The notes: generated from the sequence alone by a model not told the origin. 21,033 nt of DNA from a candidate division WOR-3 bacterium (GCA_027050205.1 JALUCS010000005.1:1-21033); one strand, 5' to 3'; numbered from the stretch's first letter, positions 5,884-20,817 are shown. Translations and numbers: made by a program.

Positions 5884-8800
5884 CTAACGGACTACGAACT
5901 TCAGTCGCTTCGTCCCGCGTACCTCTTTAAGTTTTAGAACGAACACGCCGGAGGGGAGGGCCGGCTTCAGTACGACTTCACCGCTGACGTTTAACCTCTT
6001 CCCGTACATCAACCTCCCGGAGGCGTCGTAAATTTTAACCTCCACCCCTTCGCCCTTGCCCCTAAGCACCACCTCCCCACCTTCACCAACCGAGACCTTT
6101 ACCCCTCCGTCCACACCGGGACCCTCCCACTCGGCCGTGGCTATATCCACGCTATACACCTGTAGCCCCGCCGTTACGCTGGCCGTATAGACCTTGTGGT
6201 CCCTGTACCAGACGTCTCTGGGACCCGAAGGAGTGGAGTAGGCGTACGTTTGATAGTACCCACCGGAGAAGTCGGGGGCCAACCCTTTGAAGCCGTCGTA
6301 GTAGTTGGCCACGTACACGTTGCCGGCGGTCGCGTCGTAGGAGACGCCGACGACCTTGTTGCCGTAATCGTACCAGTACCCCCGTAGGCTCAAGTTTTCG
6401 GGATCGCTGATGTCTATGGCGTCCATACCGTTGTCCAGATAGGCCACGTACGCGAGGTTGTTGAATACGTCCAAGGCTACGTCAAGGGCGTCCGTGAGGA
6501 TGTAGGAGTCCATGTACCTGTCCATGTACGTGAAGGGCGTACCGGAGACGTCTATCGTCAGGAGTCCTCCGTCTATGCCTCCCTTCAGGGCGACGTAGGC
6601 CACCCCTCCGTAGGTCGCTACGCTCACGGCGACGGCGTTGGGAGACATACCGTAGTCCTCGTAGTAGTTGAAGGTGCTGTGGTTTATGGCGTACAGGGAT
6701 GAGCTATCGGCTATAAAGAGTAGGCCGGAGCCGAAGAGGGCGCAGTCGCAGTACACGTCGTACGCGTAGCCGGGTGTGTTGTACGTGTTTATGAGTGTGG
6801 GGCTGGTCTTGTTTGTTGCGTCTATGGCATATACGCCGTTCTCTCCCATCGCCATATAGACGGTGTCGTTGGCTACCGTTAGACCTTCTGCTTTACCGGT
6901 TAGGGTAATACCGGAGACGTACGTCGGTTGCGTTCCCGATACGTCAAGTATCACTAAGTCCTGGCCACCGAATAGGGGGGCATCGTTCCCGTCCTCTATG
7001 GCGAGGTAGGCGTAGTTGCCGTATACCTCCACGTCCTTCGTCCATCCCCACGCGGTGTAGAAGGAGACGAGTCGGGGGGAGGTGCGGGCGTTTACGTCGT
7101 AGTATGCTATATCTCTCCCATAGGGTACGAAGAGGGTGTCGTTCTCAAACATGATGTCCCCACTCGGCTCACCCTCCAGTCTATCCGACACTATCATCCG
7201 CGGGTTGACCGGGTCGCTTATGTCGTAGATGTAGAGATAGGTTGAATCGCCGAACTCTCTGGTGTATATGGTCAGAGCCAGCCTGTCGCCGAAGATGTGC
7301 ATATACTGCGGCCCTGAGTAAACCCACCTTTCGGAATGAGGCAATCTGTTGATGGACAGCAGATAGGGCTGGGAAGGCGTGGAGAAGTCCCATACGGCCA
7401 GGACCATCGTGTCGGAGCTGGGGTAGGAGTTCCAGCACTTGTACGTTGTGTACAGCCGGTTATCGCGATAGGCTATATCTCCAACGGAGATTCCACGAGT
7501 AGAGGTATATATGGAGTTGCACATATCCGTCTCCGATATGGTGGCGACGGGTGTAAGGCCTCCCCGCGTGTCGTATACTCTTATGCCGATGTCTCCCATC
7601 ATGAGTATGAGGTAATCCCCGAAGGACCTGAGCCTCATGTATTGAGGGCTAGAGGACGTGTCCAGGGTTATGGTGCGGGCCAGAGAGATGTTTCCGGTGG
7701 GCGAGAGGCTGTAGACTCCGAGGTAGGAGGTAGAGCTGTCCTGGCTCCAGTAAGCCACATAAACGGTGTCGTGTATAACGATGATGTCCCTGAACCTTAC
7801 CACCTTTCCCCTCGTTGGGGCCTGGGAGACGACGGTCATTGTGGCAGTATCCACGACGTAAACGCTGTCGGCGTCCGTACTCGTTGAGTTGATGAAGGCG
7901 ACCACCGAGTACTTGTAGCGACCTATTGCCATAACCATACCGAAAGCGTCATAGCCCGAAAAACATACCTCGTTTAACGAATACAGATCAGTTATAGCAT
8001 AACTTCCACCGGTGCTAACGGCATGGAATGAGCCGTTGACCCTTCTGACCCTCGCCACATCACCGCCGCAGCTGGAATACCCAAAGGGAACAAAGGAAAG
8101 CATAAGATCAAGCGTATCCCTCAGAACCTCTATCTTGCTGACGCCGTAGTTTGAGGCGGCGACGTATACGTACCGCCCGGAGGCGGCCATGGAGACGCCC
8201 GGACCCCACGTCTGCGCCCTAATGTAGGAGTTGAGGTAGGAGTCGTACCTCACCAGAGAGGAGTCCGTACGGGAGCCGTCAAGGAGCCAGACGTAGCCGG
8301 AGAAGACGAGGACGTCCTTCGGGACCATTCCGGAGGGGAGGATTTTGCCGTACTCAACCGTCTGGGTCTTGATGTTCATCATACTAAGGTTATAGTTTCC
8401 ATCGTAGGAGAGGAAGAAGATGTCGGGAGATGGGGAGTTGAAGGTACCCGCGAGCTGTCCCCGGAGGTAGAGGTCCCCGTAGGCGAGGGCGTAGGTGTAG
8501 CCGTTGTTTATGCTCCTTATGTGGGTGGGGGCAGCGTTTGAGGAGGAGTTGTCCCGCAGGATTATCAGGCCGCTGTCTCCGGCGGCGACGTATATCTTGT
8601 CCTCGTGCTTCAGTACCTTCAGGGCGTAGCCGGAGCCTCCTATGTTGTAAGTCCCTACGTACGTTGGCGAGTAGGGGTCATCTATGGCATACACGTGGAC
8701 GCCCCCGTACCCGGCCGCGATGTATGCGAACTTGTTCCCGGAGGAGAAGGTGGAGGGGGTGACGTAGACGTCCCTGAACTCCCCTGCGTTGTGGGTTATT

Positions 8801-9186
8801 GAAAGACGGGTGGGGTTGGAAGGGGTACTTACGTCCCATATCTCAAGGCCCCCTCTACCCGCTGCTATGTACAGGTCCTCTCCCACTTCATCGTAGTGGA
8901 GGCCCCACACTACCCCCCTCGTCCTTATCTCCCCCACCTTGGCGAGGTTGCTGTCAAGGACGAGTACGCCCCCACCGCTTCCCATGAAGACGTACCCCCT
9001 CGCCGGGTCTACGGCCACGGCGTAGGAGGGGCCGAAGGGCCAGTTGCTGTGAAACCTGGCATTCAGGGAGTCAAAGCCCGATAGAACGCGGAAGTCCCCC
9101 ACCTTCTTCGTTCCCCTCTCCGTAGCCACCACGCTGCGTGCGGCTGTTCCCGAAGTCGCCGATGCTATCAGCAGTACGTGAAGCAT
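5884..9186 (-). CDS. Large secreted LVIVD-repeat (beta-propeller) protein with T9SS-like C-terminal sorting domain
   Basis: Repeats such as LYIAAGRGGLEIWDVSTPSNP, AYIAAGYGGVHVYAIDDPYSP and AYVAYLDNGMDAIDISDPEN. C-terminus VKIYDASGRL...LPSGVFVLKL...KRLKFVVR. Confidence 0.85.
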   Translation of the reverse strand: MLHVLLIASATSGTAARSVVATERGTKKVGDFRVLSGFDSLNARFHSNWPFGPSYAVAVDPARGYVFMGSGGGVLVLDSNLAKVGEIRTRGVVWGLHYDEVGEDLYIAAGRGGLEIWDVSTPSNPTRLSITHNAGEFRDVYVTPSTFSSGNKFAYIAAGYGGVHVYAIDDPYSPTYVGTYNIGGSGYALKVLKHEDKIYVAAGDSGLIILRDNSSSNAAPTHIRSINNGYTYALAYGDLYLRGQLAGTFNSPSPDIFFLSYDGNYNLSMMNIKTQTVEYGKILPSGMVPKDVLVFSGYVWLLDGSRTDSSLVRYDSYLNSYIRAQTWGPGVSMAASGRYVYVAASNYGVSKIEVLRDTLDLMLSFVPFGYSSCGGDVARVRRVNGSFHAVSTGGSYAITDLYSLNEVCFSGYDAFGMVMAIGRYKYSVVAFINSTSTDADSVYVVDTATMTVVSQAPTRGKVVRFRDIIVIHDTVYVAYWSQDSSTSYLGVYSLSPTGNISLARTITLDTSSSPQYMRLRSFGDYLILMMGDIGIRVYDTRGGLTPVATISETDMCNSIYTSTRGISVGDIAYRDNRLYTTYKCWNSYPSSDTMVLAVWDFSTPSQPYLLSINRLPHSERWVYSGPQYMHIFGDRLALTIYTREFGDSTYLYIYDISDPVNPRMIVSDRLEGEPSGDIMFENDTLFVPYGRDIAYYDVNARTSPRLVSFYTAWGWTKDVEVYGNYAYLAIEDGNDAPLFGGQDLVILDVSGTQPTYVSGITLTGKAEGLTVANDTVYMAMGENGVYAIDATNKTSPTLINTYNTPGYAYDVYCDCALFGSGLLFIADSSSLYAINHSTFNYYEDYGMSPNAVAVSVATYGGVAYVALKGGIDGGLLTIDVSGTPFTYMDRYMDSYILTDALDVALDVFNNLAYVAYLDNGMDAIDISDPENLSLRGYWYDYGNKVVGVSYDATAGNVYVANYYDGFKGLAPDFSGGYYQTYAYSTPSGPRDVWYRDHKVYTASVTAGLQVYSVDIATAEWEGPGVDGGVKVSVGEGGEVVLRGKGEGVEVKIYDASGRLMYGKRLNVSGEVVLKPALPSGVFVLKLKEVRGTKRLKFVVR

Positions 9187-9195
9187 ACCTCCGAG

Positions 9196-9201
9196 ATTCT
9201 A
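9196..9201 (-). promoter_or_regulatory. Putative -10 element (TAGAAT, minus strand)
   Basis: TAGAAT lies 9 nt before the ATG at 9186, and its TAG is an in-frame stop for that ORF. Confidence 0.6.
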
Positions 9202-9228
9202 CGAACGCCCTCGTGCCGTCCGAAGGGA

Positions 9229-9251
9229 GGTTCAACACCGGAGGTTGAACC
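9229..9251. promoter_or_regulatory. Perfect inverted repeat GGTTCAAC-N7-GTTGAACC in a divergent promoter region (candidate operator)
   Basis: 8-bp arms centred between the two divergent -10 elements, followed by a CCGGGGGAA direct repeat (9250-9258, 9261-9269). Confidence 0.5.
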
Positions 9252-9278
9252 GGGGGAAATCCGGGGGAACCCCTTTCT

Positions 9279-9284
9279 TAAAAT
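9279..9284 (+). promoter_or_regulatory. Putative -10 element (TAAAAT)
   Basis: 10 nt before the ATG at 9295. Confidence 0.6.
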
Positions 9285-9294
9285 CCCCGGCGAT

Positions 9295-10860
9295 ATGCTC
9301 TTTAGCTCCCTTTTAGCAGCGCAGGGTGGCCCTGATGCTTTCGGGTACTACTGGAGGGACAACCGCGGTGGTCCCCCTTACGCAACCTTCAACTGGATAG
9401 ACGTAGGGGAGCTGGCTGTGGAGTGCTACGCGCAGTTCTACGAGACGGCAGACCCTACGGAGTACTGGATAGAGAGGCCTCTCTCCGCCGATCAACTTTT
9501 CCCAAGGTCGGACGAGGCCGTGACTGCCGTACCCATACCCTTTGATATGATCTTCTACGGAAGCGTCCATCCGGCGGGGGATAGCCTCTACGTCAGCAGT
9601 AACGTAGTGGTGTCCTTTGACTCTACCCTCTCCGACGACGACGCCTCAAACGACCCCGTACCCTCCACAGGGACACCCAACCATACGGTGATAGCTCCCT
9701 TCTGGGACGATATGAAGTCAGCCGCCTACGTGTGGACGGTGTCCGACCTAAGCACCCTACCCGGAGGGTGGGCCGGATGGGAGGGTCACCAGGCCCTCGT
9801 CATAGAGTGGGACAGCATAGCATACTGGAGCAACGGCTCCCCTGACTCCTACGGCAAGATAGAGCTCATCGTAACGGATAGCATACGGAACGGAAACAGC
9901 GTCATAGTCTGGGTGTTCTACGGGGACTATCAAAGTACAAGTACCACATCGGCTTCCATAGGAACGGAGAACGAGGACGGGAGCGTTGGATGCGCCTATA
10001 CGGGCGGGATAAACGACGGTTTCGGCTCAACCCCGTTCGTCACGGACTACAATCCGGGGGCCGTTCTGCTCCACGACACCCTCCTCGGAGACACGGGTGT
10101 GCATTACATCGTCTCCGGCGATGACGTAGTTGATACCATCCCCGCCCCCTTTAAGATGATGCTGTACGGTTTCCCCCTCTACGCGGGGGATCCTATAACT
10201 GTCTCAACCAACGGATGGGCCGCCCTGGGGAACTTCCTCTCCTCCTCCTACCGGAACAACACCTCCCTACCCGATGCGGCCTTCCCCAACAGCCTCCTCG
10301 CCGTATTCTGGGACGACCTCGTGGTCCTCGGCTCTGTGAAGTACAAGGTCGTAGGGACGGCTCCCAACCGCACCCTCGTTATAGAGTGGGACAGCGTAAA
10401 GAGGTACGGCTCCTCCTCCGGATCGGCGAGGTTCCAGGTTCAGATAAAGGAGATAACCGACACATCGGACCACTCCCTCCAGAGCGAGATATCCTTCCTC
10501 TACGGGGATACGGACTTCGGCTCCTCAACCCCATCGGCCACGATAGGCATAGAGAACGCCCTTGGGGACACCGCCCTACTCTACACGGGTTCGGCCATAA
10601 CCGGTACGGCCCCTAACATCTCGGCCATAGATACCAACGTCGTCATCCTCTTTACTAAGGGGACGGCGACCTCTACGTCCGAAGGGGCATCCTACCGGGA
10701 ACTTTTCAACACCTTAGCAGCGGTCTATTCCTCCTCCGGGAGGCTCGTAGGGTGGGCTAAGGTGGAAAGTGGAATCCCACAGCTAAAAACCCTAAAGCTT
10801 CCGCCCGGCGTGTATTTTGTGCGCACCGGAAACCGCATAGGGAGGTACTTGGTGCGGTAG
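9295..10860 (+). CDS. Secreted protein (521 aa) with GGPDAFGY N-terminal motif, tandem duplicated NIDO-like domain and T9SS-like C-terminal domain
   Basis: Start reassigned to ATG 9295 (MLFSSLLAAQGGPDAFGY). Two copies of PF...YG...VSxN...PN..(I/L)AxFWDD...LVIEWDS...SAxIGxEN. C-terminus VYSSSGRLV...LPPGVYFVR...RYLVR. Confidence 0.8.
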   Translation: MLFSSLLAAQGGPDAFGYYWRDNRGGPPYATFNWIDVGELAVECYAQFYETADPTEYWIERPLSADQLFPRSDEAVTAVPIPFDMIFYGSVHPAGDSLYVSSNVVVSFDSTLSDDDASNDPVPSTGTPNHTVIAPFWDDMKSAAYVWTVSDLSTLPGGWAGWEGHQALVIEWDSIAYWSNGSPDSYGKIELIVTDSIRNGNSVIVWVFYGDYQSTSTTSASIGTENEDGSVGCAYTGGINDGFGSTPFVTDYNPGAVLLHDTLLGDTGVHYIVSGDDVVDTIPAPFKMMLYGFPLYAGDPITVSTNGWAALGNFLSSSYRNNTSLPDAAFPNSLLAVFWDDLVVLGSVKYKVVGTAPNRTLVIEWDSVKRYGSSSGSARFQVQIKEITDTSDHSLQSEISFLYGDTDFGSSTPSATIGIENALGDTALLYTGSAITGTAPNISAIDTNVVILFTKGTATSTSEGASYRELFNTLAAVYSSSGRLVGWAKVESGIPQLKTLKLPPGVYFVRTGNRIGRYLVR

Positions 10861-10864
10861 AGAT

Positions 10865-10885
10865 GGGGGGGACACCCCCCTTTTT
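10865..10885 (+). terminator. Rho-independent terminator
   Basis: GGGGGG-GACA-CCCCCC followed by TTTTT, 4 nt after the stop. Confidence 0.8.
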
Positions 10886-11349
10886 CCTGAAAACCGGTCC
10901 CCGTTAGAGTTGGAGGTCTCGGCGTTGGTGGAGCTTCTTGTTTGTGAGATTTCTTTACACATTTTGCGTTAATCTGTGTGAAATTTTGATCATTTCTTCA
11001 TCGGAGCTTACGGAATCATAGTTATATGAGTCTTGCAGGGAATCTTTGCTGTATGCAGGTCTCTTCCGGATCATCCTAATAGGGATTAAAGTTGAAGTGT
11101 CGGTTTTTAAACACATCTTCGTATAAATGCGGCATCGGGTAGCAGATAGACCGTACGACTAACCGCAAGTAGGTAGGAGTGTCTCACTTATACATAAATA
11201 CGTTGAAAAGTGCGACAGTTGGCAGGTAGCCAACGGTTCCCCGCGGTGCTTCTTCGCATCTCCCCCGTCTCCCCGCTTGTTGTGGAAAATTTTGAATAAT
11301 TTCGGGAAATTTGATATAAATTATAATCATACTACGTGCAACTTGGCCC

Positions 11350-11367
11350 TTGAACGTTGATGTTCAA
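11350..11367. promoter_or_regulatory. Perfect inverted repeat TTGAAC-N6-GTTCAA (candidate operator)
   Basis: Lies 30 nt upstream of the -10 at 11398, and a further TGAACTTCAA follows at 11371-11380. Confidence 0.45.
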
Positions 11368-11397
11368 ATCTGAACTTCAACATTACGCAGACCGATG

Positions 11398-11403
11398 TAA
11401 AAT
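11398..11403 (+). promoter_or_regulatory. Putative -10 element (TAAAAT)
   Basis: 7 nt before the ATG at 11411. Confidence 0.6.
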
Positions 11404-11410
11404 CTCGTTT

Positions 11411-12847
11411 ATGCTCATACTGATGGTACAGGACCTGTACGGCGTATGGAACGACGCCTGGCCGATGTTTCGGCACGACTACAAACGTACGGGTTATTAC
11501 AGGAGGTGGAGGGCGAGGTGTTCCTCCATGTCCCACCTCTACGACGTTGTCCATGGTACGCAGCACGAAGGCGTTGTGAGCAGGGACGCCAACGGGGACG
11601 GCTACGCGGACGTGATAGGGACACAGGCTGAACCTTACGGCGTTAAGGTCGTCCACGGGTGGAACGGAAGCACTATATGGCAATCCGGATCGGATCAGTA
11701 CGGTTATCCCCCTACATCTGCAGCCGTTTCTAATACGAGAGTTTTCGCCGTAGGATTCCGTTATCTTCAGGTTTTTAACCTATACAGCGGTTCTACCATC
11801 TACACGTACTCCAAAGGTCCCGGTAGGGATCCATCCCCGGCCATAGCAGACATAGACGACGATGGATGTCCGGAGATATACGCAGCATTTACAAGTATCC
11901 TCGTTTCCATAGACGGATGTTCCTCTTCCTACTCTACCTTCTGGGTCCAGGTTTACTCACCGGGTTTCCATGCGCCCGCCCTCGGGGACGTGGATGGGGA
12001 CGGGGACCTTGAGGTCCTGTACCCTACGAGAAGCGGTACCGTTTACGTCTTAGACGCCGCCACTGGCAGTTTGCATAGCTATTTCATTCCCGGAACTCCT
12101 CCTCCATCGTCAAGGCCCGGCTATACCGTTCCTTTGGAGGATCTTGACGGCGATGGGAAGGATGAGGTTGTCGTCGTTACCTCCACCGCCATTAAGGTGT
12201 ATGACTACAACTCCGGCTGGATCCTCCGGTGGTCGGTATCCTTTCCTGGTGGCTCTATCCCTGCCCTTGGAGACAAGGACGGGGACGGCTTGCCTGACGT
12301 ATGGGCTATAAGGAACGGCAACGTCTACGTCTATAAGGGGACAGACGGCTCCTTTCTCGGCAGATCCAGTGTCAGCGACCTAGCTCTCTACTATCCCCCC
12401 ACGCTCGCGGACCTCACCGGGGATGGGGTTCCCGACGTCTTGGCGATTAGAAACCCCAACCGCGTCCGGGTGATTGACGGGGCTACCCTATCCCCTGCCG
12501 GACTTTATGGCGTAACTCCATATCCCATATCCTCCGAGATAATAGTTTTGAAGCTTCGGAACACCCTCGGCTTTGCCGTGGGGGATGGCTCCTGCCACAT
12601 AAACGCCTGGGGTGGTTGCCCTATAGGTACGGACAGCGATCTAGCCGTCGGCGAAAGGGAAGAGGCCCAGCCCAGCCTGAAGTTTGACGGCACATACGTA
12701 GTGGCGAAGGGGAGGGAGATAGAGATCTACGACCGTTCCGGGAATGTCCTCTTAAGGGGCTACGGCAAGGTCTCGGTGTCTTCCCTGCCCAAGGGCATAT
12801 ACTTCGCCCGCTCCGGCGAGAAGGTCATAAGGGTTATAGTTAGGTAG
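11411..12847 (+). CDS. Secreted FG-GAP/VCBS-repeat beta-propeller protein with T9SS-like CTD, paralog A (478 aa)
   Basis: WPMFRHDYKRTG motif. Ca-binding loops DANGDGYAD, DVDGDGDLE, DLDGDGKDE, DKDGDGLPD and DLTGDGVPD. CTD IEIYDRSG...LPKGIYF...KVIRVIVR. Start set by alignment with paralog B. Confidence 0.85.
   Translation: MLILMVQDLYGVWNDAWPMFRHDYKRTGYYRRWRARCSSMSHLYDVVHGTQHEGVVSRDANGDGYADVIGTQAEPYGVKVVHGWNGSTIWQSGSDQYGYPPTSAAVSNTRVFAVGFRYLQVFNLYSGSTIYTYSKGPGRDPSPAIADIDDDGCPEIYAAFTSILVSIDGCSSSYSTFWVQVYSPGFHAPALGDVDGDGDLEVLYPTRSGTVYVLDAATGSLHSYFIPGTPPPSSRPGYTVPLEDLDGDGKDEVVVVTSTAIKVYDYNSGWILRWSVSFPGGSIPALGDKDGDGLPDVWAIRNGNVYVYKGTDGSFLGRSSVSDLALYYPPTLADLTGDGVPDVLAIRNPNRVRVIDGATLSPAGLYGVTPYPISSEIIVLKLRNTLGFAVGDGSCHINAWGGCPIGTDSDLAVGEREEAQPSLKFDGTYVVAKGREIEIYDRSGNVLLRGYGKVSVSSLPKGIYFARSGEKVIRVIVR
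12589..12825 (+). repeat. 237-bp near-identical direct repeat (copy 1; copy 2 at 14224-14460) encoding linker plus CTD
   Basis: Manual alignment gives 9 mismatches in 237 nt and one amino-acid difference (N/H). Confidence 0.9.
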
Positions 12848-12995: not shown

Positions 12996-13027
12996 AAAAC
13001 CAATTCATACCAATAGCTCATCACTAT

Positions 13028-13033
13028 TATAAT
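13028..13033 (+). promoter_or_regulatory. Putative -10 element (TATAAT)
   Basis: 9 nt before the ATG at 13043. TTCATA 18 nt upstream could be the -35. Confidence 0.65.
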
Positions 13034-13042
13034 TTCACCTCT

Positions 13043-14482
13043 ATGCTATGGATTCTAATAACACAGGATCTGTACGGCGTATGGAACGAGGCGTGGCCGA
13101 TGTTTCGGCACGATTACAAGCGTACGGGGCATTACAAGGCGTGGAAGGCTTCGTGTTCCTCTATGTCTCACCGCTACGACGTCGTCCACGGTAGTATGGA
13201 CGAAAGTGTGATAAGCAGGGACGCCAACGGGGACGGATATGCGGACGTAATAGGGACCCAGGCCGAGGCGTATGGCGTTAAGGTGATACACGGATGGACG
13301 GGAGGCACCATCTGGCAATCCGGATCGGACAGGTACTCCTACCCTCCCACACCTGCGGCCGCCTCCGATACGAGGGTCTTCGCCGTAGGATACAACTACT
13401 TCCAGGTCTTCAACCTCTCCACCGGCTCCATCATCTACACGTACGTCAAAGGTGGCCACAGGGATCCCGCCCCTGCCATAGCCGATATAGATAACGACGG
13501 CTGTCCGGAGGTATATACGGCCTTCGGTAATACGGCCGTTGCCATAAACGGATGCGCCTCCTCCTACTCTACCTTATGGACCCGCTCCCTCTCCTCAACT
13601 CCCCGCGCTCCCGCCCTCGGGGACGTGGATGGGGACGGCGACCTTGAGGTCCTCTATCCCACAAGCAGCGGCACCGTTTACGTCTTTGACGCCGCCACCG
13701 GCAGCTCGCACAGCTCCTTCTCCCCCGGTTCTCCTCCCTCATCGGCAAGGCCGGACTACACCGTAGCCTTGGAGGACCTTGACGGCGATGGAAAGGACGA
13801 GGTCGTGGCCGTTACCTCCTCCTACATCAGGGTCTACGATTACAACTCCGGCTGGAGCCTCCGGTGGTCGGTATCCTTCTCCGGTGAATCTGCCCCTGCC
13901 CTCGGAGACAAGGACGGGGACGGCTTACCCGACGTATGGGCTATAAGGAGCGGCAACGTCTACGTCTATAAGGGGACAAACGGTACCTATCTCGGTAGCT
14001 CCAGCGTCGGCGATCTGACCTCTGGCTATCCCCCCTCACTCGCGGACTTTACCGGGGATCTTATCCCCGATGTCCTGGCTATCAGGAGCAGCTACTACGT
14101 TCGGGTAATCAGCGGGGCAACCCTCTCGCCCGTAATGACGTTCGGCTCAACCCCCTACGGCATAACCTCCGAGGTGGCCGTTTTAAAACTCCAGAGTACC
14201 CTCGGCTTCGTAGTAGGGGATCACTCCTGCCACATAAACGCCTGGGGTGGCTGCCCTATAGGTACGGACAGCGATCTGGCCGTCGGCGAAAGGGAAGAGG
14301 CCCAGCCCAGCCTGAAGTTTGACGGCACCTACGTAGTGGCGAAGGGGAGGGAGATAGAAATCTACGACCGCTCCGGCCATGTCCTCTTAAGGGGCTACGG
14401 CAAGGTCTCGGTGTCCTCCTTGCCCAAGGGCATATACTTCGCCCGCTCCGGCGAGAAGGTATTAAGGGTCGTGGTAAGGTGA
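13043..14482 (+). CDS. Secreted FG-GAP/VCBS-repeat beta-propeller protein with T9SS-like CTD, paralog B (479 aa)
   Basis: Colinear paralog of 11411..12847. Begins MLWILITQDLYGVWNEAWPMFRHD and ends KVLRVVVR. Confidence 0.85.
   Translation: MLWILITQDLYGVWNEAWPMFRHDYKRTGHYKAWKASCSSMSHRYDVVHGSMDESVISRDANGDGYADVIGTQAEAYGVKVIHGWTGGTIWQSGSDRYSYPPTPAAASDTRVFAVGYNYFQVFNLSTGSIIYTYVKGGHRDPAPAIADIDNDGCPEVYTAFGNTAVAINGCASSYSTLWTRSLSSTPRAPALGDVDGDGDLEVLYPTSSGTVYVFDAATGSSHSSFSPGSPPSSARPDYTVALEDLDGDGKDEVVAVTSSYIRVYDYNSGWSLRWSVSFSGESAPALGDKDGDGLPDVWAIRSGNVYVYKGTNGTYLGSSSVGDLTSGYPPSLADFTGDLIPDVLAIRSSYYVRVISGATLSPVMTFGSTPYGITSEVAVLKLQSTLGFVVGDHSCHINAWGGCPIGTDSDLAVGEREEAQPSLKFDGTYVVAKGREIEIYDRSGHVLLRGYGKVSVSSLPKGIYFARSGEKVLRVVVR
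14224..14460 (+). repeat. 237-bp near-identical direct repeat (copy 2)
   Basis: Matches 12589-12825 with 9 mismatches. Confidence 0.9.
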
Positions 14483-14495
14483 TGTTTCATAAACT

Positions 14496-14525
14496 AAAAG
14501 AGGGGGGCGTACGCCCCCCTCTTTT
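14496..14525. terminator. Bidirectional Rho-independent terminator
   Basis: Perfect 30-bp palindrome AAAAGAGGGGGGCGT|ACGCCCCCCTCTTTT between convergent genes. Confidence 0.92.
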
Positions 14526-14543
14526 TGTACCCTAAGTTGCGCG

Positions 14544-15314
14544 TTAGTACTTGATCCAGCCGAGACCGGGGACCTTGTTCTGGATGTAGATGGTGGCTGT
14601 GGTGTTGTAGGGGCCGGAGCCGTTGGTGGGGCCGACCTTGATCAGGCCGAAGCAGGAGTTGGTGGAGATGTTGCCGTCCAGATCCCTGTCAAACCAGAGG
14701 TAGTACTCGGAGTTCCCGGATACGTCCTTCGTACCGCTGTAGGCGTCGGTGGAGTTGGGGGCGAGGCCAGCGGTGCTTCCGGGATCGGCGAACTTGGTCC
14801 TGACCTTACCGCCACCGATGGAGGTCTCAAAGACGTCCTTGAACTGCGGGGTGCCAGCGTTGTTGAAGAAGACGAAGTAGGCGGTGTTGTTGAGGGTGGT
14901 ATCTACGGACGCCTGACTGATGGTGGTGGCCTCGGTGCTGTCGCCCTTGAGGTAGACCTTCACCCAAGAGTGGTGGGTGGTGTCGGGGTCGTCGTGGGTG
15001 TAGATGGTGCCGAGGTCCTTCTCGTAGGGGGTCAGGTCTATGGAATCGGCGCCTCCGCCCTCGGCCTCAACCACTACGAGGCTATAGACGCCCTCGCTCC
15101 CCTGGAGGACGTAGTGGGTGGAGTCTATCGTGGCTATGAGGTTGCCGTCCCCGTAGATCTTGTACTTGTTGGCGTTCTCAACGGGGTTCCAAGTCAGGTC
15201 CAGGTCGGAGCCGTTGTTGGTAGCCTCTACGGTAACGGAGGGCGTACCTACGTTGCCCCTACATCCGACCATCAGAGCAGCGCCTGCGAAGAGTAAAGCG
15301 TAAAACCTCTTCAT
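14544..15314 (-). CDS. Lipoprotein of unknown function with N-terminal FN3-like segment
   Basis: Lipoprotein signal MKRFYALLFAGAALMVG|C. LTWNPVENANKYKIYGDG resembles FN3. Confidence 0.8.
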   Translation of the reverse strand: MKRFYALLFAGAALMVGCRGNVGTPSVTVEATNNGSDLDLTWNPVENANKYKIYGDGNLIATIDSTHYVLQGSEGVYSLVVVEAEGGGADSIDLTPYEKDLGTIYTHDDPDTTHHSWVKVYLKGDSTEATTISQASVDTTLNNTAYFVFFNNAGTPQFKDVFETSIGGGKVRTKFADPGSTAGLAPNSTDAYSGTKDVSGNSEYYLWFDRDLDGNISTNSCFGLIKVGPTNGSGPYNTTATIYIQNKVPGLGWIKY

Positions 15315-15323
15315 GACGAAGAT

Positions 15324-15329
15324 ATTTTA
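15324..15329 (-). promoter_or_regulatory. Putative -10 element (TAAAAT, minus strand)
   Basis: 9 nt before the ATG at 15314. Confidence 0.6.
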
Positions 15330-15370
15330 AGGGTGTCTCACTTATGTTGAGCAGTCCTAACTTACGGCCT

Positions 15371-15376
15371 TAAAAT
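15371..15376 (+). promoter_or_regulatory. Putative -10 element (TAAAAT)
   Basis: 9 nt before the ATG at 15386. TTGAGC (15347-15352) 18 nt upstream fits a -35. Confidence 0.65.
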
Positions 15377-15385
15377 CCCAACGTC

Positions 15386-16108
15386 ATGAGGAGAGCCGTT
15401 CTGTTAGGTGTAGCACTGCTGGCCCTGGCCGGCTGCGAAGAGGGTATCCCCCTCTCGCACACCCACGTCTTCGGTACGGGAGGGGCCACCGGCCCGGCCC
15501 TGACCACCCTAACTACCCTGCTTCCCTCCGAGTACGGTAGCGTTTCCCTGCCCGCCGGCTTGGACACCCTGACCTACGAGTCCGCCTTCTTCAAGATCCT
15601 GGTGGACCTCAAGGACTACGGGGAGGCCACGGTCAAGGTGGGGGACGTGGAGCTGACCTATCAGTCGGACAAGGGCATCTATATGGCTTTGGACACGTCG
15701 GGCGCCCCCGTTGAGGTCCCGCTTTCGGGAGGTACGGAGGTGAGCATAACCGTCCCCAAGTACAACGAGCGTATCCTCTTCACCCTACCCGACGTCTCCC
15801 CTCCGGAGACCGTCCTGGTGGATACCCTCGTCCATTCCGTAGGAGACAGCATAGTGGTCTCTTGGTCCCCCGTAAGCGGGGTCGACTCCATTCAGGTGTT
15901 CTTCAAACTCGCCGACAGGGACCCCTACGTAAAGAACTTACCTCCCACGGCCACCAACTTTACGATACCTGCCTCCATCGTGGATACCACCGGGAACGCC
16001 CTGATAATGGTGAACGTCCTGAAGCTGGTGAACATCGCGGAGGGACAGAAGCCGTCCTATATGATACTGGTAAAGGGGAAGGTGCTACCGCCGGTGCGGG
16101 TAGAGTGA
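15386..16108 (+). CDS. Lipoprotein of unknown function (beta-rich, C-terminal FN3/Ig-like)
   Basis: Lipobox in MRRAVLLGVALLALAG|C. VVSWSPVSGVDSIQV...TNFTIP resembles FN3. Confidence 0.8.
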   Translation: MRRAVLLGVALLALAGCEEGIPLSHTHVFGTGGATGPALTTLTTLLPSEYGSVSLPAGLDTLTYESAFFKILVDLKDYGEATVKVGDVELTYQSDKGIYMALDTSGAPVEVPLSGGTEVSITVPKYNERILFTLPDVSPPETVLVDTLVHSVGDSIVVSWSPVSGVDSIQVFFKLADRDPYVKNLPPTATNFTIPASIVDTTGNALIMVNVLKLVNIAEGQKPSYMILVKGKVLPPVRVE

Positions 16109-16112
16109 GGGG

Positions 16113-17249
16113 ATGCACAGGTCGGTCTTTGAGGCGATCCTAAGGACGCGAGAGAGGTTGGTGCGTTTCCTTGAGGAGAAGGAGAGGCCGGATTACGACC
16201 CGCAGTGGCGCCCGTTGGAACCATCCGAGGTACCCGACACCGTCGTGGCGGTGGACGGCTCACTCAACCACTCCCCCCGCACCTCCCACCTTATAGTGGC
16301 CCTTACCGGCCTCTCCCTACTCTTCTCCAAGGATAGGGAGCCGGGGGAGGAGGCCATATCCCACGTGGACGTCATAGACAGGGGAATCTTTCGCCGTATG
16401 GCCTTGGACTCCGTCCTCGGTACGTGGATGAGGTTGGCGGAGATAAAGTCCGTCTTGAGGCTCTCCCCACCGGAGGAGTCCATCGTACTTATGGACGGCT
16501 CTTTCGTCAGCGACGTAATAAATCCCAAACCGACACCGGAGTGGATCAGCGCCCACCTGTCGGAGGAGGACAGGGAGGTAATGGAGGGTCTGGACGACGA
16601 GTTGGCCAGCATGGGCCTGTACGATAGGATCAGGGAGGAGTTCCATCGCCACTCCTTCACCTCCCTTTACCTCCTGGACACGAGCGATACTCCGGGGAGG
16701 AAGGAACACAGGTACATGGCCCTCGCCCTCCTCCTGTACAGGGAACACCTTGAGGCCTTAAGCCGGTTGATAGCCGGGGGCTGGACGGTGGTCTTCGTCT
16801 CCAAAAGGTCCACGTCCAACGACTACATCAAGACGTGGGACTACAGGGGCATATACTCGGATCAGGTCCTCTTCTCCCTATTCACGCGGGGTAGGGGCTT
16901 TGCACCACCCTTGAGGGTCAGGTTCCCGGAGAAGGAAGGGGATGAGGATCCCCCTCCCAAGAAGTACGGCCTCGGAAAGGACTACGCCCACATTCTGGAC
17001 GTGGAGGTGTACGAGACCTTCGTCCGGTTCTCGGAGTACTCTCCCCTGACGTACAAGGTGGAGGTGGTAGGGACGTCGGAGGACGGGGTGGAGGGCATAC
17101 TGTCCGAGGTGGCCTCCCTATCCCCCGGTGGCTACCCCATCCCCCTTGAGAAGGCCCACAAGGAGGTCGTGATAACCTACAGCGACATGGAACTCATATC
17201 GCAGGTCATAACCCCGATAGAGATGAGCGTCAGGGAGGCGTTGAAATGA
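16113..17249 (+). CDS. nurA: NurA-family nuclease (DNA double-strand break repair)
   Basis: Motifs VAVDGS, VLMDGS, VFVSKRS and C-terminal GYPIPLEKAHKEVVI are NurA signatures. Confidence 0.85.
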   Translation: MHRSVFEAILRTRERLVRFLEEKERPDYDPQWRPLEPSEVPDTVVAVDGSLNHSPRTSHLIVALTGLSLLFSKDREPGEEAISHVDVIDRGIFRRMALDSVLGTWMRLAEIKSVLRLSPPEESIVLMDGSFVSDVINPKPTPEWISAHLSEEDREVMEGLDDELASMGLYDRIREEFHRHSFTSLYLLDTSDTPGRKEHRYMALALLLYREHLEALSRLIAGGWTVVFVSKRSTSNDYIKTWDYRGIYSDQVLFSLFTRGRGFAPPLRVRFPEKEGDEDPPPKKYGLGKDYAHILDVEVYETFVRFSEYSPLTYKVEVVGTSEDGVEGILSEVASLSPGGYPIPLEKAHKEVVITYSDMELISQVITPIEMSVREALK

Positions 17250-18046
17250 GGAAGCCCTTCTTCATAGCCGGGCCGTGCGTCATAGAGGGCGAGGGGATGG
17301 TGATGGACGTCGCCCACGAACTCAAGGGCATCGCGGAGAGGTACGGCGTAAGGCTCTACTTCAAAGCCTCCTACGACAAGGCCAACCGCACGTCCATAGA
17401 GAGCTTCAGGGGACCCGGCCTTGAGGAAGGTTTGAGGATACTCAAGAGGGTGAGGGAGGAGGTCGGCCTTCCCGTTCTGACGGACGTACACGACACCCAC
17501 GACGTTCCGAGGGTGGGGGAGGTGGTGGACGTGGTGCAGATACCGGCCTTTCTCTCCCGCCAGACCGACCTCTTAGTTGCCGCTGGAAAGACGGGCAAGG
17601 TGGTGAACATCAAAAAGGCCCAGTTCATGGCCCCGTGGGACGTCAAGTACGCCGTTGAGAAGGTAAGGAGTACGGGGAACGGTGAGGTGTGGGTGACGGA
17701 GAGGGGTACCCTCTTCGGGTACGGGGACTTAGTGGTGGATATGCGGGGCCTCATCTGGATGAGGAGGGACGGCCTCACGGTGGTGTACGACGCCACCCAC
17801 TCCCTCCAGGTGCTTTCGGGCAGGGGGAAGGTATCCGGAGGCCACCGGGACCTGATAACCCACCTCCTCCGGGGTGCCGTAGCCGTGGGGATAGACGGGA
17901 TATTCGCCGAGGTGCATCCGGACCCGCCCCGCGCCCTATCCGACGCCGCAACCCAGTTCCCCCTAAAGGAATTCCCCCGCCTCGTGGAGATGGCCCTGGA
18001 GCTATACGAGGTGGCCAGCCGCTGGTACAACTTTGAGGTGAGATGA
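17246..18046 (+). CDS. kdsA: KDO 8-phosphate synthase (2-dehydro-3-deoxyphosphooctonate aldolase), metal-dependent type
   Basis: Motifs IAGPCVIE, FKASYDKANRTS, QIPAFLSRQTDLL, DATHSLQ and EVHPDP..ALSD. Confidence 0.96.
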   Translation: MRKPFFIAGPCVIEGEGMVMDVAHELKGIAERYGVRLYFKASYDKANRTSIESFRGPGLEEGLRILKRVREEVGLPVLTDVHDTHDVPRVGEVVDVVQIPAFLSRQTDLLVAAGKTGKVVNIKKAQFMAPWDVKYAVEKVRSTGNGEVWVTERGTLFGYGDLVVDMRGLIWMRRDGLTVVYDATHSLQVLSGRGKVSGGHRDLITHLLRGAVAVGIDGIFAEVHPDPPRALSDAATQFPLKEFPRLVEMALELYEVASRWYNFEVR

Positions 18047-18594
18047 TAACCTTAATAGCCCTCCTTGACGTTGGGTACTTCCCGGAGGTCAAACTCCTCG
18101 CCGCCAAGGGCGTAGAGGTCGGGAAGATAAAGGTACTCCCCTCAAAGACGGGGAGGGTGGAGGTCTCCAAGGAGGGGTTGAGGGTGGTGAAGAGGGGGAG
18201 GACCCTCTTCCTGTTGGTTGATAGCCCAACGGACAGTGTCGTCCTCAAGGTGCCGAGGGGGATAGACTTAGAGATGGCGACCCTAAGGAGCGAGGTTGAG
18301 ATCAGGGGGGTGAGCCTGAAGGCCGTAGGTATAAACGACGTCGCCGGCCGTCTAAGAATAAGGGGAGGGGAGTTCGGGGACCTCAGCCTGACCCTCGTTG
18401 ATAGCGAGGTCCTGATGGAGGGGTGTAAGGTGGAGAGGATGGAGTTGGGGGCGATGGGTTCCCGCATAACCGTAAGGAAGAGCCGGATAAACTCCCTCAA
18501 CCTGAACGCCACCAAGGGGAAGATGATCCTGGAGGCCACCACCGTAGGGGAGTTTCAAAAGACCGTAAAGGACTTTCGCGTAGTATGGCGGTGA
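18043..18594 (+). CDS. Hypothetical exported protein, possibly DUF4097-like beta-solenoid
   Basis: ATGA overlap with kdsA, short hydrophobic N-terminus, and periodic beta-strand pattern in the C-terminal half. Confidence 0.6.
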   Translation: MITLIALLDVGYFPEVKLLAAKGVEVGKIKVLPSKTGRVEVSKEGLRVVKRGRTLFLLVDSPTDSVVLKVPRGIDLEMATLRSEVEIRGVSLKAVGINDVAGRLRIRGGEFGDLSLTLVDSEVLMEGCKVERMELGAMGSRITVRKSRINSLNLNATKGKMILEATTVGEFQKTVKDFRVVWR

Positions 18595-19427
18595 TGGGCA
18601 TAGACGTAGGGGGGACGGGGAGCCGGTACGTCCTCCTTGACGGCGATGGCAAAGTGGTGGAGACGGGGGAAATGAACTGGAGGTACGGCGAAGGGATAGA
18701 TGCCCTCGCCTCCGAGATAGGGGAAATGAAGGGGAGGACAGGGGCGGAGAGGGTCGGCGTGGCGATGCGGGGGGTGTGGAGGGAGGAGGAGAGGGAGGAG
18801 ATGAGGAAGAAGTTGGGGGTGGATGTGGTGATGAGCGACGTTGAGGGGGCCTTCTACGACGCTTTCAAAGACGAGGGCCTCGTCGTCGTAGCCGGGACGG
18901 GGTCCATCTGCTACGGCAGGAAGGGGGAGAGGGTGAGCCGTTTCGGGGGCTTCGGTCCCCTCATAGACGACTGGGGGAGCGGTTTCTGGATGGGGAGGCT
19001 GGCCGTGGAGATAGCCCTGAAGAAGGAGAGTTTCTTGAGGCTCGCCCTCTTCGGTACGGAGGACCTGAACGCCATCCGGGACATTCTGGCCAGCATCCAG
19101 AGGAGACCCTTTCCGGAGATGGTGAGGGAGATAGCCCGGTACGCCAAGGTTGTAATTAAGGCCGCAGAGATGGGGGAAGAGGACGCCTCCTTCGTCGTAA
19201 AGAGCGCCCTAAGGGAACTCCTCGGTATGTGCCTGTGGGTGAGGGAGGACCTCGGAAACGTCAGAAACATAGCCCTTCACGGAGGTCTGTTCAGATCGCC
19301 GTTTTTCAGGAGGCACTTCGTGAGCCTTTTGAAGAGGTACGCTTTCCAGCGAATAGTTGAGAGTACGGATGCGGCGAGAGGGGTGGGGAGGTGGATGTTG
19401 GAGACCGAGTTGAAGGGGGGCCGATAA
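18585..19427 (+). CDS. BadF/BadG/BcrA/BcrD-type ATPase, N-acetylglucosamine/N-acetylmuramate kinase-like
   Basis: Motifs GIDVGGT, VVAGTGSI, GGFGPLIDDWGSGFWMG and LHGGLF. Confidence 0.85.
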   Translation: MAVMGIDVGGTGSRYVLLDGDGKVVETGEMNWRYGEGIDALASEIGEMKGRTGAERVGVAMRGVWREEEREEMRKKLGVDVVMSDVEGAFYDAFKDEGLVVVAGTGSICYGRKGERVSRFGGFGPLIDDWGSGFWMGRLAVEIALKKESFLRLALFGTEDLNAIRDILASIQRRPFPEMVREIARYAKVVIKAAEMGEEDASFVVKSALRELLGMCLWVREDLGNVRNIALHGGLFRSPFFRRHFVSLLKRYAFQRIVESTDAARGVGRWMLETELKGGR

Positions 19428-19433
19428 CTCCCC

Positions 19434-19439
19434 TATAAT
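19434..19439 (+). promoter_or_regulatory. Putative -10 element (TATAAT)
   Basis: Perfect hexamer in the 34-nt gap, 22 nt before the ATG at 19462. Confidence 0.5.
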
Positions 19440-19461
19440 ACCCTCATATTCGGTTTAACCT

Positions 19462-20817
19462 ATGCTGTGGATGTTCCTTGCAAAGGACACGCTTTACCTT
19501 ACGAAGGACAAAAGACCCCTCGTCCTCAAACCCGTAGAGACGACGGTTGAGGAGGAGAATTTCAGGCATAGGTTCAGCATCAACGAGTTCGTTTATCCGA
19601 CGCAGATAAGCAGGGGCTACTTCGGAGGAACAGCATACTTCTACCAGATGATAGGGGGTCTCCTCCCCTCTGCTGGCTTCTCCTTCAGCGTCAGGGGACT
19701 GCCACCCACAAGCAACAGGATGTATATCAACGGCATACCCCTGCTCAACATGATGTTGAGCAGCCTCGCACCCCTGCCCATAAACGAGAATCTCGTATCC
19801 TCTGCCCGTGTTTACCGTGGAGATGCCCCGATGGAGTACGACGGCTTCTTAGGTGGGGTGATAGACATGAACGTTGAGCCTCTTTACAACAAGGTGCAGG
19901 TAGGACTACCCACAACTTACGCCTTTTACAGGGGATTCTACGGTCAGTACTCCAGTCCAACCTACCTAAACGTCCCACCCATAACCGATCCCCGCGTCAA
20001 GGGTAGCACCGAGAACTACTCTGCGGGGTTGGTGCGTAGGTTCTGGAGAAATCGCCTGAAATTGACCGCTCTATATGGCCATTCGTGGATGGGGATAAGG
20101 ATAAGATCCGAAAGGGACAGTATGCGGATGTATGCCGCCCTCAACGGCTACGGGACATCGCTAACCTTCAACTCCGGTCCTATATCTTCCATTCTGTATG
20201 CCTACGTGTCGGATAACGCCTACGATATGATGGGAACTTACGGTAGTGCCGGGAAGGTGGCGGTTAGGGTATCTTACGGGAACGTAGGGGAACGTCTCGT
20301 AATGCACGGCTTAGGAATGGAGTTTGAAGTGGGGGATAACGTAGCGAAGGATAACCTATCTGCGTCTTCCCTCTCCTACCGAACTTTCCATATTTCCCTC
20401 TTCGCTTCCCATAGATGGGATTTCTCCCGATCCTTCCTGTACGCCGGGGTGCGTCTCAACTACTCCAGGGATACCATCTACAGCCCAGAATTCCCCGGAT
20501 ATAACTACGGCATAGAGGGGATCATACCCACCTTCAGGATAAACTACAAGTGGTTCGTCAGCGACGTCAGGGCCTTCAAGGTCTTCGTCGGGAGTTCCTA
20601 TCAGAGCTACGCTCCCTTCTTCTACCTTCCCTTTATGGACCTGTACCCCTCCCCCTACTTCAGGGAGTACCCCTACGCCTACACCGCCAGCGTTGGCGAG
20701 GAGAGGCTTATAGGGGACTACGCCCTTGAGGTCAACCTCTACGCCCGCCTCTTTGAACCCTTTGTTTTCTACCTGAACTCCTCCACAACACCCCATTGTA
20801 AGCGACAAGTTTTATAA
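19462..20817 (+). pseudogene. TonB-dependent receptor-like outer membrane protein, probably truncated by IS insertion
   Basis: Plug-domain pattern FSVRGL...MYINGIPL...INENLVSSARVYRGDAPMEYDGFLGGVIDM, followed by amphipathic aromatic-rich beta strands. Ends abruptly (PHCKRQVL*) in AT-rich DNA without a terminal aromatic beta-signal. Confidence 0.6.

Follow-up and report, generated by a model that had tools for sequence, protein, structure and literature searches.

The stretch of DNA considered here (the window: 21,033 nt from a candidate division WOR-3 bacterium, GCA_027050205.1 JALUCS010000005.1:1-21033) raises a question about how proteins leave the cytoplasm. Six genes whose products look exported begin with only six to nine mostly hydrophobic residues and no basic n-region. 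A reading of the sequence alone had proposed that these are non-canonical export signals, used by all non-lipoprotein exported proteins and served by adapted SecA, SRP and signal peptidase. Are the short starts real, do they act as signals, and by what route? The host belongs to the class Hydrothermia of WOR-3, not to Bacteroidota, and I will refer to its genome as G000 and to the short N-terminus as the stub.

Features of the window

9163..9186, minus strand: 8-codon uncharged hydrophobic N-terminus of gene 5884-9186 (1100-aa LVIVD beta-propeller with T9SS-type tail); stop 5 codons upstream
9196..9201, minus strand: -10-like hexamer, ending 9 nt before the ATG at 9186; score 8.9
9279..9284, plus strand: -10-like hexamer, ending 10 nt before the ATG at 9295; score 6.2
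9295..9321, plus strand: 9-codon uncharged N-terminus, then Gln, of gene 9295-10860 (521-aa NIDO-like protein with T9SS-type tail below the TIGR04183 cut-off)
11398..11403, plus strand: -10-like hexamer, ending 7 nt before the ATG at 11411; score 7.9
11411..11428, plus strand: 6-codon hydrophobic N-terminus, then Gln, of gene 11411-12847 (FG-GAP paralog 1)
13028..13033, plus strand: -10-like hexamer, ending 9 nt before the ATG at 13043; score 8.6
13043..13063, plus strand: 7-codon hydrophobic N-terminus, then Gln, of gene 13043-14482 (FG-GAP paralog 2)
15261..15314, minus strand: canonical lipoprotein signal, 17 residues and Cys, of gene 14544-15314 (internal control)
15386..15436, plus strand: canonical lipoprotein signal, 16 residues and Cys, of gene 15386-16108 (internal control)
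18043..18066, plus strand: 8-codon hydrophobic N-terminus of gene 18043-18594 (183-aa DUF4097-like protein); the start overlaps the kdsA stop (ATGA)
19462..19482, plus strand: 7-codon hydrophobic N-terminus of gene 19462-20817 (TonB-receptor-like plug protein, 3' end cut short)

All six short starts are where the sequence-only reading had placed them, and the lipoproteins, which it had set apart as exceptions, do carry basic signals before their Cys. The family assignments vary in quality. The tail of the LVIVD protein scores 26.5 bits against TIGR04183 (cut-off 23), the one of four window proteins to exceed that cut-off, the other three falling below it. The plug protein matches Plug with an E-value of 8e-5, just below cut-off, and a profile search assigned no Pfam or NCBIfam family to the lipoprotein of gene 14544-15314. 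The product of 18043-18594 matches PF13349 at an E-value of 0.002, below cut-off; this match and the N-terminus are the two indications that it may be exported. FG-GAP paralogs encoded elsewhere in the genome have basic signals of 20-22 residues.

The short methionines as protein starts

Longer N-termini had been held to be impossible for three of the genes, and indeed in-frame stops precede the Met at 9186 (minus strand), 18043 and 19462 by 5, 2 and 2 codons. For the two FG-GAP paralogs, homology does begin at the Met: the proteins align from residues 1-2 with 78% identity. A start model built on DNA only (leaderless -10 box, RBS, coupling) chooses the short Met. The hexamers upstream of 9186, 9295, 11411 and 13043 have scores (6.2-8.9) of a level reached by 46% of 881 training starts, as against 6 of 4061 internal ATGs; the one at 9196..9201 is presumably a leaderless promoter, back to back with that of 9295. 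The alternative TTG, ATG or GTG codons upstream of the window starts give no canonical signal. The expectation that gene callers would mis-extend such starts failed for these six, since public protein sets contain exact copies of all six short versions but not of the one upstream-extended version that was looked for.

The same holds beyond the window. Among 99 short tail proteins in the genome, 59 have no in-frame start codon upstream (40 have some), 53 have a stop within 12 codons upstream, and the start is supported by a -10 box in 76 and by an RBS or coupling in 20. These proteins do begin at the short Met. I considered leaderless transcription as a cause of short signals and found no link: 175 of 285 short-signal genes are leaderless, as are 88 of 156 canonical and 52 of 92 lipoprotein genes.

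Genome-wide spread and cargo

About 250 envelope-type proteins in G000 have an uncharged hydrophobic start of 6-9 residues. Such a start is found in 263 of 1437 TM-free proteins (18%), compared to 124 of 7366 internal Met positions (1.7%). Lys and Arg are absent from residues 2-7 in 100 of the 121 proteins with T9SS-type tails. The proposal that all non-lipoprotein exported proteins are short is thus correct for the window but too broad for the genome, where the remaining 21 have Lys or Arg in residues 2-7, most of them with full-length signals; long signals are kept by about one sixth of tail proteins and by lipoproteins. The short starts are not themselves short lipoprotein signals: the lipobox Cys of an SPase II signal is not evident, as Cys occurs at positions 6-14 in 15 of 257 short proteins, with 18 expected. 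This spread supports the suggestion that, throughout the lineage, proteins which have to cross the inner membrane bear a minimal signal at the N-terminus, lipoproteins exempt.

The cargo includes BamA, a second Omp85, SurA, LolA, Skp, a TolC-type OEP, LptD, FadL, a TonB receptor and a SprA-like protein, the largest product being 1851 aa in length. Judged by eye, the 18 BamA leaders compared in the window's order are all free of Lys and Arg. Positions 2-5 of the stub consist of L, I, V, F, M or W in 76-91% of cases (in part an effect of the selection rule), and hydrophobicity drops after position 6-7. The stub discriminates cargo, since it is conserved in kind and missing from all 17 genes in two ribosomal/RNA-polymerase stretches. 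A similar short hydrophobic start followed by TM helices is found in 21 proteins of G000, YajC included.

Register with mature chains and the predicted cleavage site

Residue 10 of LolA aligns with residue 3 of 1iwl_A, and residue 11 of SurA with residue 4 of 1m5y_A, chains that I take to be the mature E. coli proteins; in both cases, therefore, seven residues lie ahead of the mature chain. Long- and short-signal paralogs of one genome align from the first residue after the signal. By alignment, then, the stub stands where paralogs and orthologs have their long signal, and the mature chains remain in register. The match of FadL to solved structures was too weak for use, and the comparison of Skp was uninformative.

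The claim that the stub is often cleaved before Gln fares less well. Gln is enriched after the stub (at position 8 in 33 of 257 short proteins, 12.8% vs a background of 1.6%), but it occurs at positions 6-11 in only 63 of 257, so that in three quarters of short proteins the site is not marked by any Gln. In a search confined to the PF05096 type of glutaminyl cyclase (as distinct from the M28 type), the enzyme was found in none of five genomes. If cleavage sites are assumed from the position of Gln (56 short proteins with Gln at 7-10), residue -1 is small in 45 and bulky in 11, and residue -3 is L, I, V or F in 51 and small in two. In this genome 9 of 13 long signals likewise have Leu at -3. 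In LolA the register places Leu at -1 with Phe at -3, contrary to the (-3,-1) rule.

Export machinery

G000 encodes SecY, SecD, YidC, LepB and Lgt. SecA was not found in its assembly (93.5% complete) but is present in 19 of 21 relatives, and so Sec-type cargo occurs in one cell with SecYEG, SecA and LepB, if SecA is taken from the relatives. SRP, which had been predicted to be adapted, is instead missing from the class: an SRP54-family search found Ffh/FtsY in none of 38 Hydrothermia genomes (an apparent FtsY match in G000 is a ParA-type neighbour), and SRP RNA (RF00169) was found in none of three Hydrothermia genomes but in both of two others. The stubs have neither the TM-length helix nor the SRP that a signal anchor or SRP substrate would require. 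The signal peptidase is a single ordinary LepB, with no change peculiar to short lineages in 20 sequences. In a genome of the same genus, SecA shows nothing unusual beyond an enlarged preprotein-binding region.

The only class-specific change found in the machinery is in SecY, where Ser is replaced by Arg in TM10 in 59 of 64 sequences of the class and in none of 197 from other WOR-3. By alignment the Arg occupies the position of E. coli Ser405, beside L407/I408 and adjoining the pore ring. L407R and I408N are at prlA sites in E. coli SecY (PMC11494458). The Arg arose in a single evolutionary event, together with a gain of Asp/Glu and loss of Arg at the end of TM5, and may therefore be a neutral charge move. 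By analogy with prlA alleles, it may relax the proofreading of signals, though it is not required for short ones.

Tat does not appear to be the route, since no twin Arg is found in the stubs and TatC is absent from the 100%-complete genome G020, whose BamA signal is short. I rejected loss of N-formylation as a cause: Fmt is present in 5 of 5 genomes and Def in 115 of 121, and while Fmt of G000 has Ala in place of a conserved Asn, that of G013, which has short signals, lacks the change. Of the type IX-related families, PF18962 (the tail family) is present in 21 of 21 genomes, SprA_N in 5 of 5 and the PorV family PF19572 in 4 of 5, the exception being G000.

Distribution and origins within WOR-3

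Across Hydrothermia signals have shortened one gene at a time, with graded intermediates in relatives, and within the Skp family long and short signals switch between G012 and G013. All four combinations of SRP (present or absent) and signal length (short or long) occur inside the phylum, so the presence of SRP does not track signal length. Loss of SRP is rejected as the cause, given SRP-less families that retain long signals and an unrelated WOR-3 genome, G070, that has short signals along with SRP and an ordinary SecY motif. It follows from G070 that neither the loss of SRP nor the change in SecY is required. By one SecY tree, short signals would have arisen at least twice in WOR-3; the outgroup evidence on signal length comes from Skp, three BamAs and a few tail proteins. 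The survey covered WOR-3; a search for LolA homologs yielded nine close relatives and no others.

A degenerate DNA pattern for Met, five hydrophobic residues, a small residue and Gln matches G000 at 21 sites, 19 of them at gene starts. As a survey of 121 genomes it was discarded: in 20 stretches taken from other WOR-3 families, each of the 23 hits examined proved to be a short reading in the wrong frame.

A probable minimal signal peptide and its alternatives

I consider it rather probable that the short N-termini are minimal Sec/SPase I signal peptides, both the export route and cleavage being part of that judgement. The signal would be made up of Met, then five to seven hydrophobic residues, then a small one, with SPase I predicted to cut after about residue 7. 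SecA would bring the unfolded precursor to SecYEG after or late in translation, targeted mostly by its mature domain; targeting of this kind, and bypass of the signal in prl strains, have precedent (PMC5412566). The stub would be the h/c end of an ancestral signal from which the n-region and half of the h-region were deleted, gene by gene and at least twice in WOR-3. Its only task would be to open the lateral gate and to offer an L-x-(A/S) site to LepB; as its length does not suffice to cross the membrane, all of it would be pulled towards the outer leaflet.

The standard picture of SPase I requires a peptide that spans the bilayer, which seven residues cannot do. This geometry favours the strongest of the alternatives, in which export is by Sec but LepB does not remove the stub: it would stay in the outer leaflet, acting as a hydrophobic tether, or SppA-like enzymes or aminopeptidases would trim it up to a polar residue or pyroglutamate. 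The unchanged LepB, two SppA-like hits in G000 (by motif only) and the bulky -1 residues of LolA and of 11 of the 56 Gln-anchored sites agree with it. I nonetheless think it unlikely, in view of the small -1 in the other 45, the Leu at -3 shared with long signals and the exact register of LolA and SurA, and since LolA, Skp and beta-barrels must leave the inner membrane.

Less likely still, the stub could be a leftover cleavage tag rather than a signal, with targeting and gate opening left to the mature domain or mRNA and a permissive, prl-like translocon. Prl strains do export proteins that have no signal (PMC5412566), and the class has both its Arg beside L407/I408 and no SRP. Against this, the stub is strongly conserved in kind and avoids the ribosomal/RNA-polymerase stretches, and G070 has stubs despite its ordinary SecY motif. 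I give very little weight to a stub read by some other route (YidC alone, which is present in 5 of 5 genomes, piggy-backing on Tat, or an unknown exporter or adaptor), as cargo of up to 1851 aa is too large for YidC alone (PMC9360617), the complete G020 has no TatC, and Skp orthologs alternate between long and short signals. Least credible of all, and already largely refuted, is an annotation artefact in which ordinary signals begin upstream through rare codons or recoding: 40 of the 99 short tail proteins have some upstream start codon and several BamA starts in relatives depend on TTG or GTG, but 53 have stops 1-12 codons upstream, the listed extensions are unlike signals, the -10 box lies too close for a leader to fit, public gene calls made independently concur, and the same method recovers long signals where they are present.

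Returning to minimal signal peptides, a larger claim can be offered tentatively, as a possibility I would not bet on: that WOR-3 has a general export code below the accepted minimum, evolved at least twice, in which a seven-residue, charge-free, non-spanning signal is recognised, translocated and cleaved, in Hydrothermia without SRP and with a prl-like SecY bearing Arg by the pore ring. If so, a signal peptide could do without its n-region and its membrane-spanning h-region, and most of what these lineages secrete would escape the predictors.

For forty years mutants have been used to ask what the minimum signal peptide is, and what purpose the n-region and the length of the h-region serve. 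WOR-3 offers natural material for these questions: a single genome has some 250 probable minimal signals together with paralogs that bear long ones, and other genomes of the phylum add intermediates and a probable second origin. The secretomes of WOR-3 from hot springs and vents are probably under-called by signal predictors, and seven-residue signals could serve as compact secretion tags. A cultured WOR-3 strain, which clusters with Ca. Caldipriscus (PMC12285271), makes cleavage and route directly testable. A literature search that reached a minority of subscription papers found no description of such short signals, and the main texts of PMC12285271 and PMC12542636 do not contain the terms "signal", "secretion", "SRP" or "type IX".

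Comparison with known systems

The classical Sec/SPase I signal comprises n-, h- and c-regions (PMC9360617). The WOR-3 stub shares with it an N-terminal location, a hydrophobic core, in most Gln-anchored cases a small residue at the presumed -1, and cargo of the Sec type (BamA, SurA, Skp, LolA, TolC, LptD), and the two are interchangeable among paralogs and orthologs. The stub differs in lacking the basic n-region, the membrane-spanning h-region (within a total of about 18-30 residues) and a helix-breaking c-region, in having L, I, V or F at -3, and in its size, 6-9 residues in total vs about 20, found naturally and throughout a genome.

Bacteroidota T9SS cargo has full-length signals, and its Q-rule refers to N-terminal pyroglutamate. 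The WOR-3 proteins resemble this cargo in their sorting-domain-like C-terminal tails, a SprA-like protein and the enrichment of Gln at the presumed +1. They depart from it in that Gln is found in only a quarter of cases, with no PF05096 cyclase and with PF19572 not found in G000.

Proteobacterial N-out membrane proteins of the YajC type have short hydrophobic N-tails that end in A-x-A. Like the stubs, these consist of few hydrophobic residues, a small residue and a polar segment. In YajC-type proteins, however, a downstream TM helix can do the targeting, whereas the proteins with stubs are mostly soluble or beta-barrels with no TM helix.

A further parallel is with prlA (SecY) mutants of E. 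coli, which also export proteins with minimal signals and also have a charged TM10 residue next to the pore ring. S405R is not among the prlA alleles named in the available parts of PMC5412566 and PMC11494458. The prlA alleles are laboratory mutations at 407/408, whereas the WOR-3 change is at 405 and fixed in a class; and short signals in WOR-3 occur also without it.

Short N-termini in the window

The six N-termini of 6–9 hydrophobic, uncharged residues (here, stubs or short signals) that the sequence-only reading proposed in place of the ordinary signal peptide of about 20 residues are all present, at 9186 (minus strand), 9295, 11411, 13043, 18043 and 19462. The upstream in-frame stops it described also hold, lying 5, 2 and 2 codons ahead of the Met at 9186(-), 18043 and 19462, respectively, as do the ordinary basic signals of the window's two lipoproteins (17 and 16 residues). 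Its expectation that gene callers would mis-extend such starts was not borne out for these six: the short-start proteins occur as exact sequences in public sets, and the upstream-extended form from an ATG at 11360, the only extended form tested, is absent from them.

By family match, the four large window proteins are one LVIVD propeller, one NIDO-like protein and two FG-GAP paralogs. All four end in a T9SS-type tail (TIGR04183 above cut-off in one, below it in three), and proteins with such a tail are called tail proteins here. The protein at 19462 matches the TonB plug slightly below cut-off, and that at 18043 gives a weak match to DUF4097. The features concerned are:

9196–9201 (-): -10-like box, apparent leaderless-start example
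9279–9284: -10-like box, apparent leaderless-start example
11398–11403: -10-like box, apparent leaderless-start example
13028–13033: -10-like box, apparent leaderless-start example
19462–20817: TonB-receptor-like gene, ending at 451 aa, compared with 614 aa in a paralog

The window's last 269 nt (20765–21033), in which a small ORF begins, match the end of contig C95 at 97% identity; a repeated mobile element likely broke the TonB-receptor-like gene. An interspersed repeat of about 45 bp with inverted arms occupies 11174–11220, where an AT-rich gap separates genes for secreted proteins, and is found in 14 copies on 14 contigs (90–97% identity); candidate readings are an element end or an operator. 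A NurA-family nuclease gene (16113–17249) has a lipoprotein gene on one side and kdsA on the other; no HerA gene adjoins it.

Start sites and apparent leaderless transcripts

Calling with a dicodon model on the 2.05-Mb assembly of the window's genome (G000) gave 1943 genes. Uncoupled genes show a TA(A/T/G)A(A/C)T hexamer ending 6–11 nt 5' of the ATG (325 matches in 479 genes), and those coupled to an upstream gene have RBS-like motifs instead. A -10-like box preceded by a C-rich run, ending 6–10 nt 5' of the ATG with no RBS, is seen at about half of all genes, and a box without RBS also at most unit-leading genes. Judged from these motifs, leaderless mRNAs appear to be used in G000, apparently on a large scale. 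A start weight matrix, trained without tail proteins and blind to protein sequence, gave 46% of the 881 training starts, versus 6 of 4061 internal ATGs, a score over 4, and it selects the short Met at 9186, 9295, 11411 and 13043.

Extent in the genome

An iterated tail profile finds 122 tail proteins in G000, 121 with a called start, and 100 of the latter lack K/R in residues 2–7. In the short set examined (n = 99, leaving out one 5'-open and one mis-started gene), an upstream in-frame start codon is absent in 59 and a stop lies within 12 codons upstream in 53; a -10 box precedes 76, and RBS or coupling is seen in 20.

Of the 1870 genes with a start, 285 were classed as short and 92 as lipoprotein; the 156 classed as canonical take in signal anchors as well as a number of false positives. 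Among 1437 TM-free proteins the short-signal rule matches the N-terminus of 263, versus 124 of 7366 internal Met positions; about 24 chance matches are expected, so about 250 short signals are real in G000. Twenty chosen short-start proteins, identified by Pfam, include BamA, a second Omp85, SurA, LolA, Skp, a TolC-type protein, LptD, FadL and a TonB receptor, and an SprA-like protein of 1851 aa has a short start as well. No stub occurs among 17 genes of two ribosomal/RNA-polymerase stretches. Cys falls at positions 6–14 in 15 of 257 short proteins versus 18 expected, and without an excess of Cys, lipoproteins do not use the short signal.

In 21 single- or multi-span inner-membrane proteins, YajC (C132:21825–22148) included, a stub precedes a polar N-tail, as if it moved N-out tails. 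The T9SS-like set of this 2-Mb, non-Bacteroidota genome includes an SprA-like translocon (C56:13255–18810) and more than 120 tail proteins; PorV (PF19572) found no match in G000.

Distribution among relatives

The closest named relatives of the G000 signal peptidase I (LepB) are those of Ca. Caldipriscus and a Ca. Hydrothermia bacterium, which places G000 in WOR-3, class Hydrothermia. BamA is present in 62 of 64 class genomes, and 58 N-termini were read by eye (left out were two 5'-open, one unclear and one other). All 58 leaders have 6–14 residues: in the window's order (18 genomes) they have 6–9 and no K/R, and in the rest of the class 7–14, with one Lys in 15. Three BamA proteins from outside the class have basic signals of 19–23 residues. 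In many class genomes of several families (L299/L302–L306, L281–L290), the sole possible BamA start is a TTG or GTG after a nearby in-frame stop.

The Skp signal is short in G000, G013 and G051 and long in the other 12 class genomes read, being long in G012 and short in G013, members of one family. In 400 kb of the complete genome G020, the signal is basic and clearly of full length in two of nine tail proteins and mostly 9–13 residues long in the others. Together these patterns indicate that shortening is graded, gene by gene.

Export machinery

G000 encodes SecY, SecD, YidC, one LepB, Lgt, TatC, Fmt and Def. SecA was found in 19 of 21 relatives and not in the G000 assembly, which is 93.5% complete. 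The sequence-only reading had supposed an adapted signal peptidase and SRP, and neither supposition finds support: LepB has its usual catalytic motifs with no change restricted to short lineages (20 sequences), and Ffh/FtsY were found in none of the 38 class genomes searched, two near-closed among them. Ffh/FtsY are present in 79 of 97 other WOR-3 genomes and all 14 controls, and SRP RNA was found in 0 of 3 class genomes versus 2 of 2 others. SRP is also missing from WOR-3 families f9, f21, f22, f24 and f30, and seems to have been lost at least twice in WOR-3.

The SecY of the class has an Arg in the TM10 motif, aligned to E. coli Ser405:

L235:12985–14322 (-), G000 residue 404; also L324–L326, L330, L337–L339: SecY TM10 Arg, replacing a conserved Ser/Thr

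It lies two and three residues from positions 407 and 408, sites of the E. coli prlA changes L407R and I408N (PMC11494458). A pattern search over 64 class genomes found the Arg in 56, and three of the eight genomes it missed were read and also carry it. The seven pattern matches among 197 other WOR-3 genomes are all Ser codons. A metagenome scan gave 113 loci, of which 55 were SecY; 53 of these resembled Hydrothermia and the other two did not. With the Arg in these two unrelated sequences (L366, L448), the change is rare and not unique to the class. It goes together with the gain of an acidic residue and the loss of an Arg where TM5 ends, which may represent a moved charge pair, not a relaxed gate. 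In G000 Fmt (L103), Ala replaces a conserved Asn of the active-site motif and the C-terminal domain has diverged (38.5 bits versus 62–96 in relatives); formylation may be weak in the genus.

Neither SRP loss nor the SecY Arg suffices as sole explanation of short signals. Genome G070 (family f25) has Ffh, FtsY, SRP RNA and a TM10 Ser, and short uncharged N-termini on its BamA, SurA, Skp and SprA-like protein; across about 390 kb, 10 of 13 tail proteins have them as well (one spurious match dropped). Families f22, f24, f9 and f15 form one clade (98/97). SRP54-family searches found nothing in the first three and a single weak match in f15, and the ten Skp proteins read in this clade have long signals. 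All four combinations of SRP present or absent with short or long signals occur. In a SecY tree of 16 sequences, G070 is sister to f17 (100/98), where Skp signals are long in 10 of 10 read, and outside Hydrothermia; this one gene tree suggests that short signals arose at least twice.

Register and probable mechanism

Against 1iwl_A and 1m5y_A, chains I take to be mature E. coli LolA and SurA, residue 10 of LolA falls on chain residue 3 and residue 11 of SurA on chain residue 4, leaving seven residues ahead of the mature chain in both. Same-genome paralogs of the window's FG-GAP proteins carry basic signals of 20–22 residues, with homology starting at, or 1–2 residues from, the Gln after each signal, and many further long/short pairs in G000 align likewise. 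Gln stands at position 8 in 33 of 257 short proteins (12.8% versus 1.6%) and at positions 6–11 in 63 (23 expected). Where it stands at 7–10 (n = 56), a small residue is at -1 in 45 and L/I/V/F at -3 in 51; among G000 long signals ending in A/G before Gln, 9 of 13 have Leu at -3. By register, Gln and the -1/-3 pattern, the stub looks like the final seven residues of the genome's own long signals.

The starts, cargo, register and distribution of the stubs are matters of observation; Sec export plus LepB cleavage would probably account for them. SecA would drive precursors through SecYEG, targeted mainly via the mature domain, and the stub would open the gate and present an L-x-(A/S) site to LepB. 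According to PMC5412566, mature domains can target by themselves, and it is only in prl mutants that triggering by the signal is bypassed in part. Against clean cleavage stand a bulky -1 residue in 11 of the 56 Gln-anchored sites, the Leu that the LolA register places at -1 and the three quarters of short proteins without the Gln marker, and a stub that LepB does not cleave is an unlikely alternative. Somewhat less plausible is a vestigial tag. Service to some other export route is improbable, and an artefact of the short starts hardly merits belief.

Relation to known signals

Literature searches found no description of such short signals, and the relevant terms are absent from the main text of two recent WOR-3 papers (PMC12285271, PMC12542636). 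The short signals themselves are real. In PMC9360617, a signal peptide is defined as tripartite, its basic end raising efficiency and its apolar region essential. The stub departs from the definition of the classical Sec/SPI signal on two counts, n-region and length, and is therefore not classed as one, although it likely works like one.
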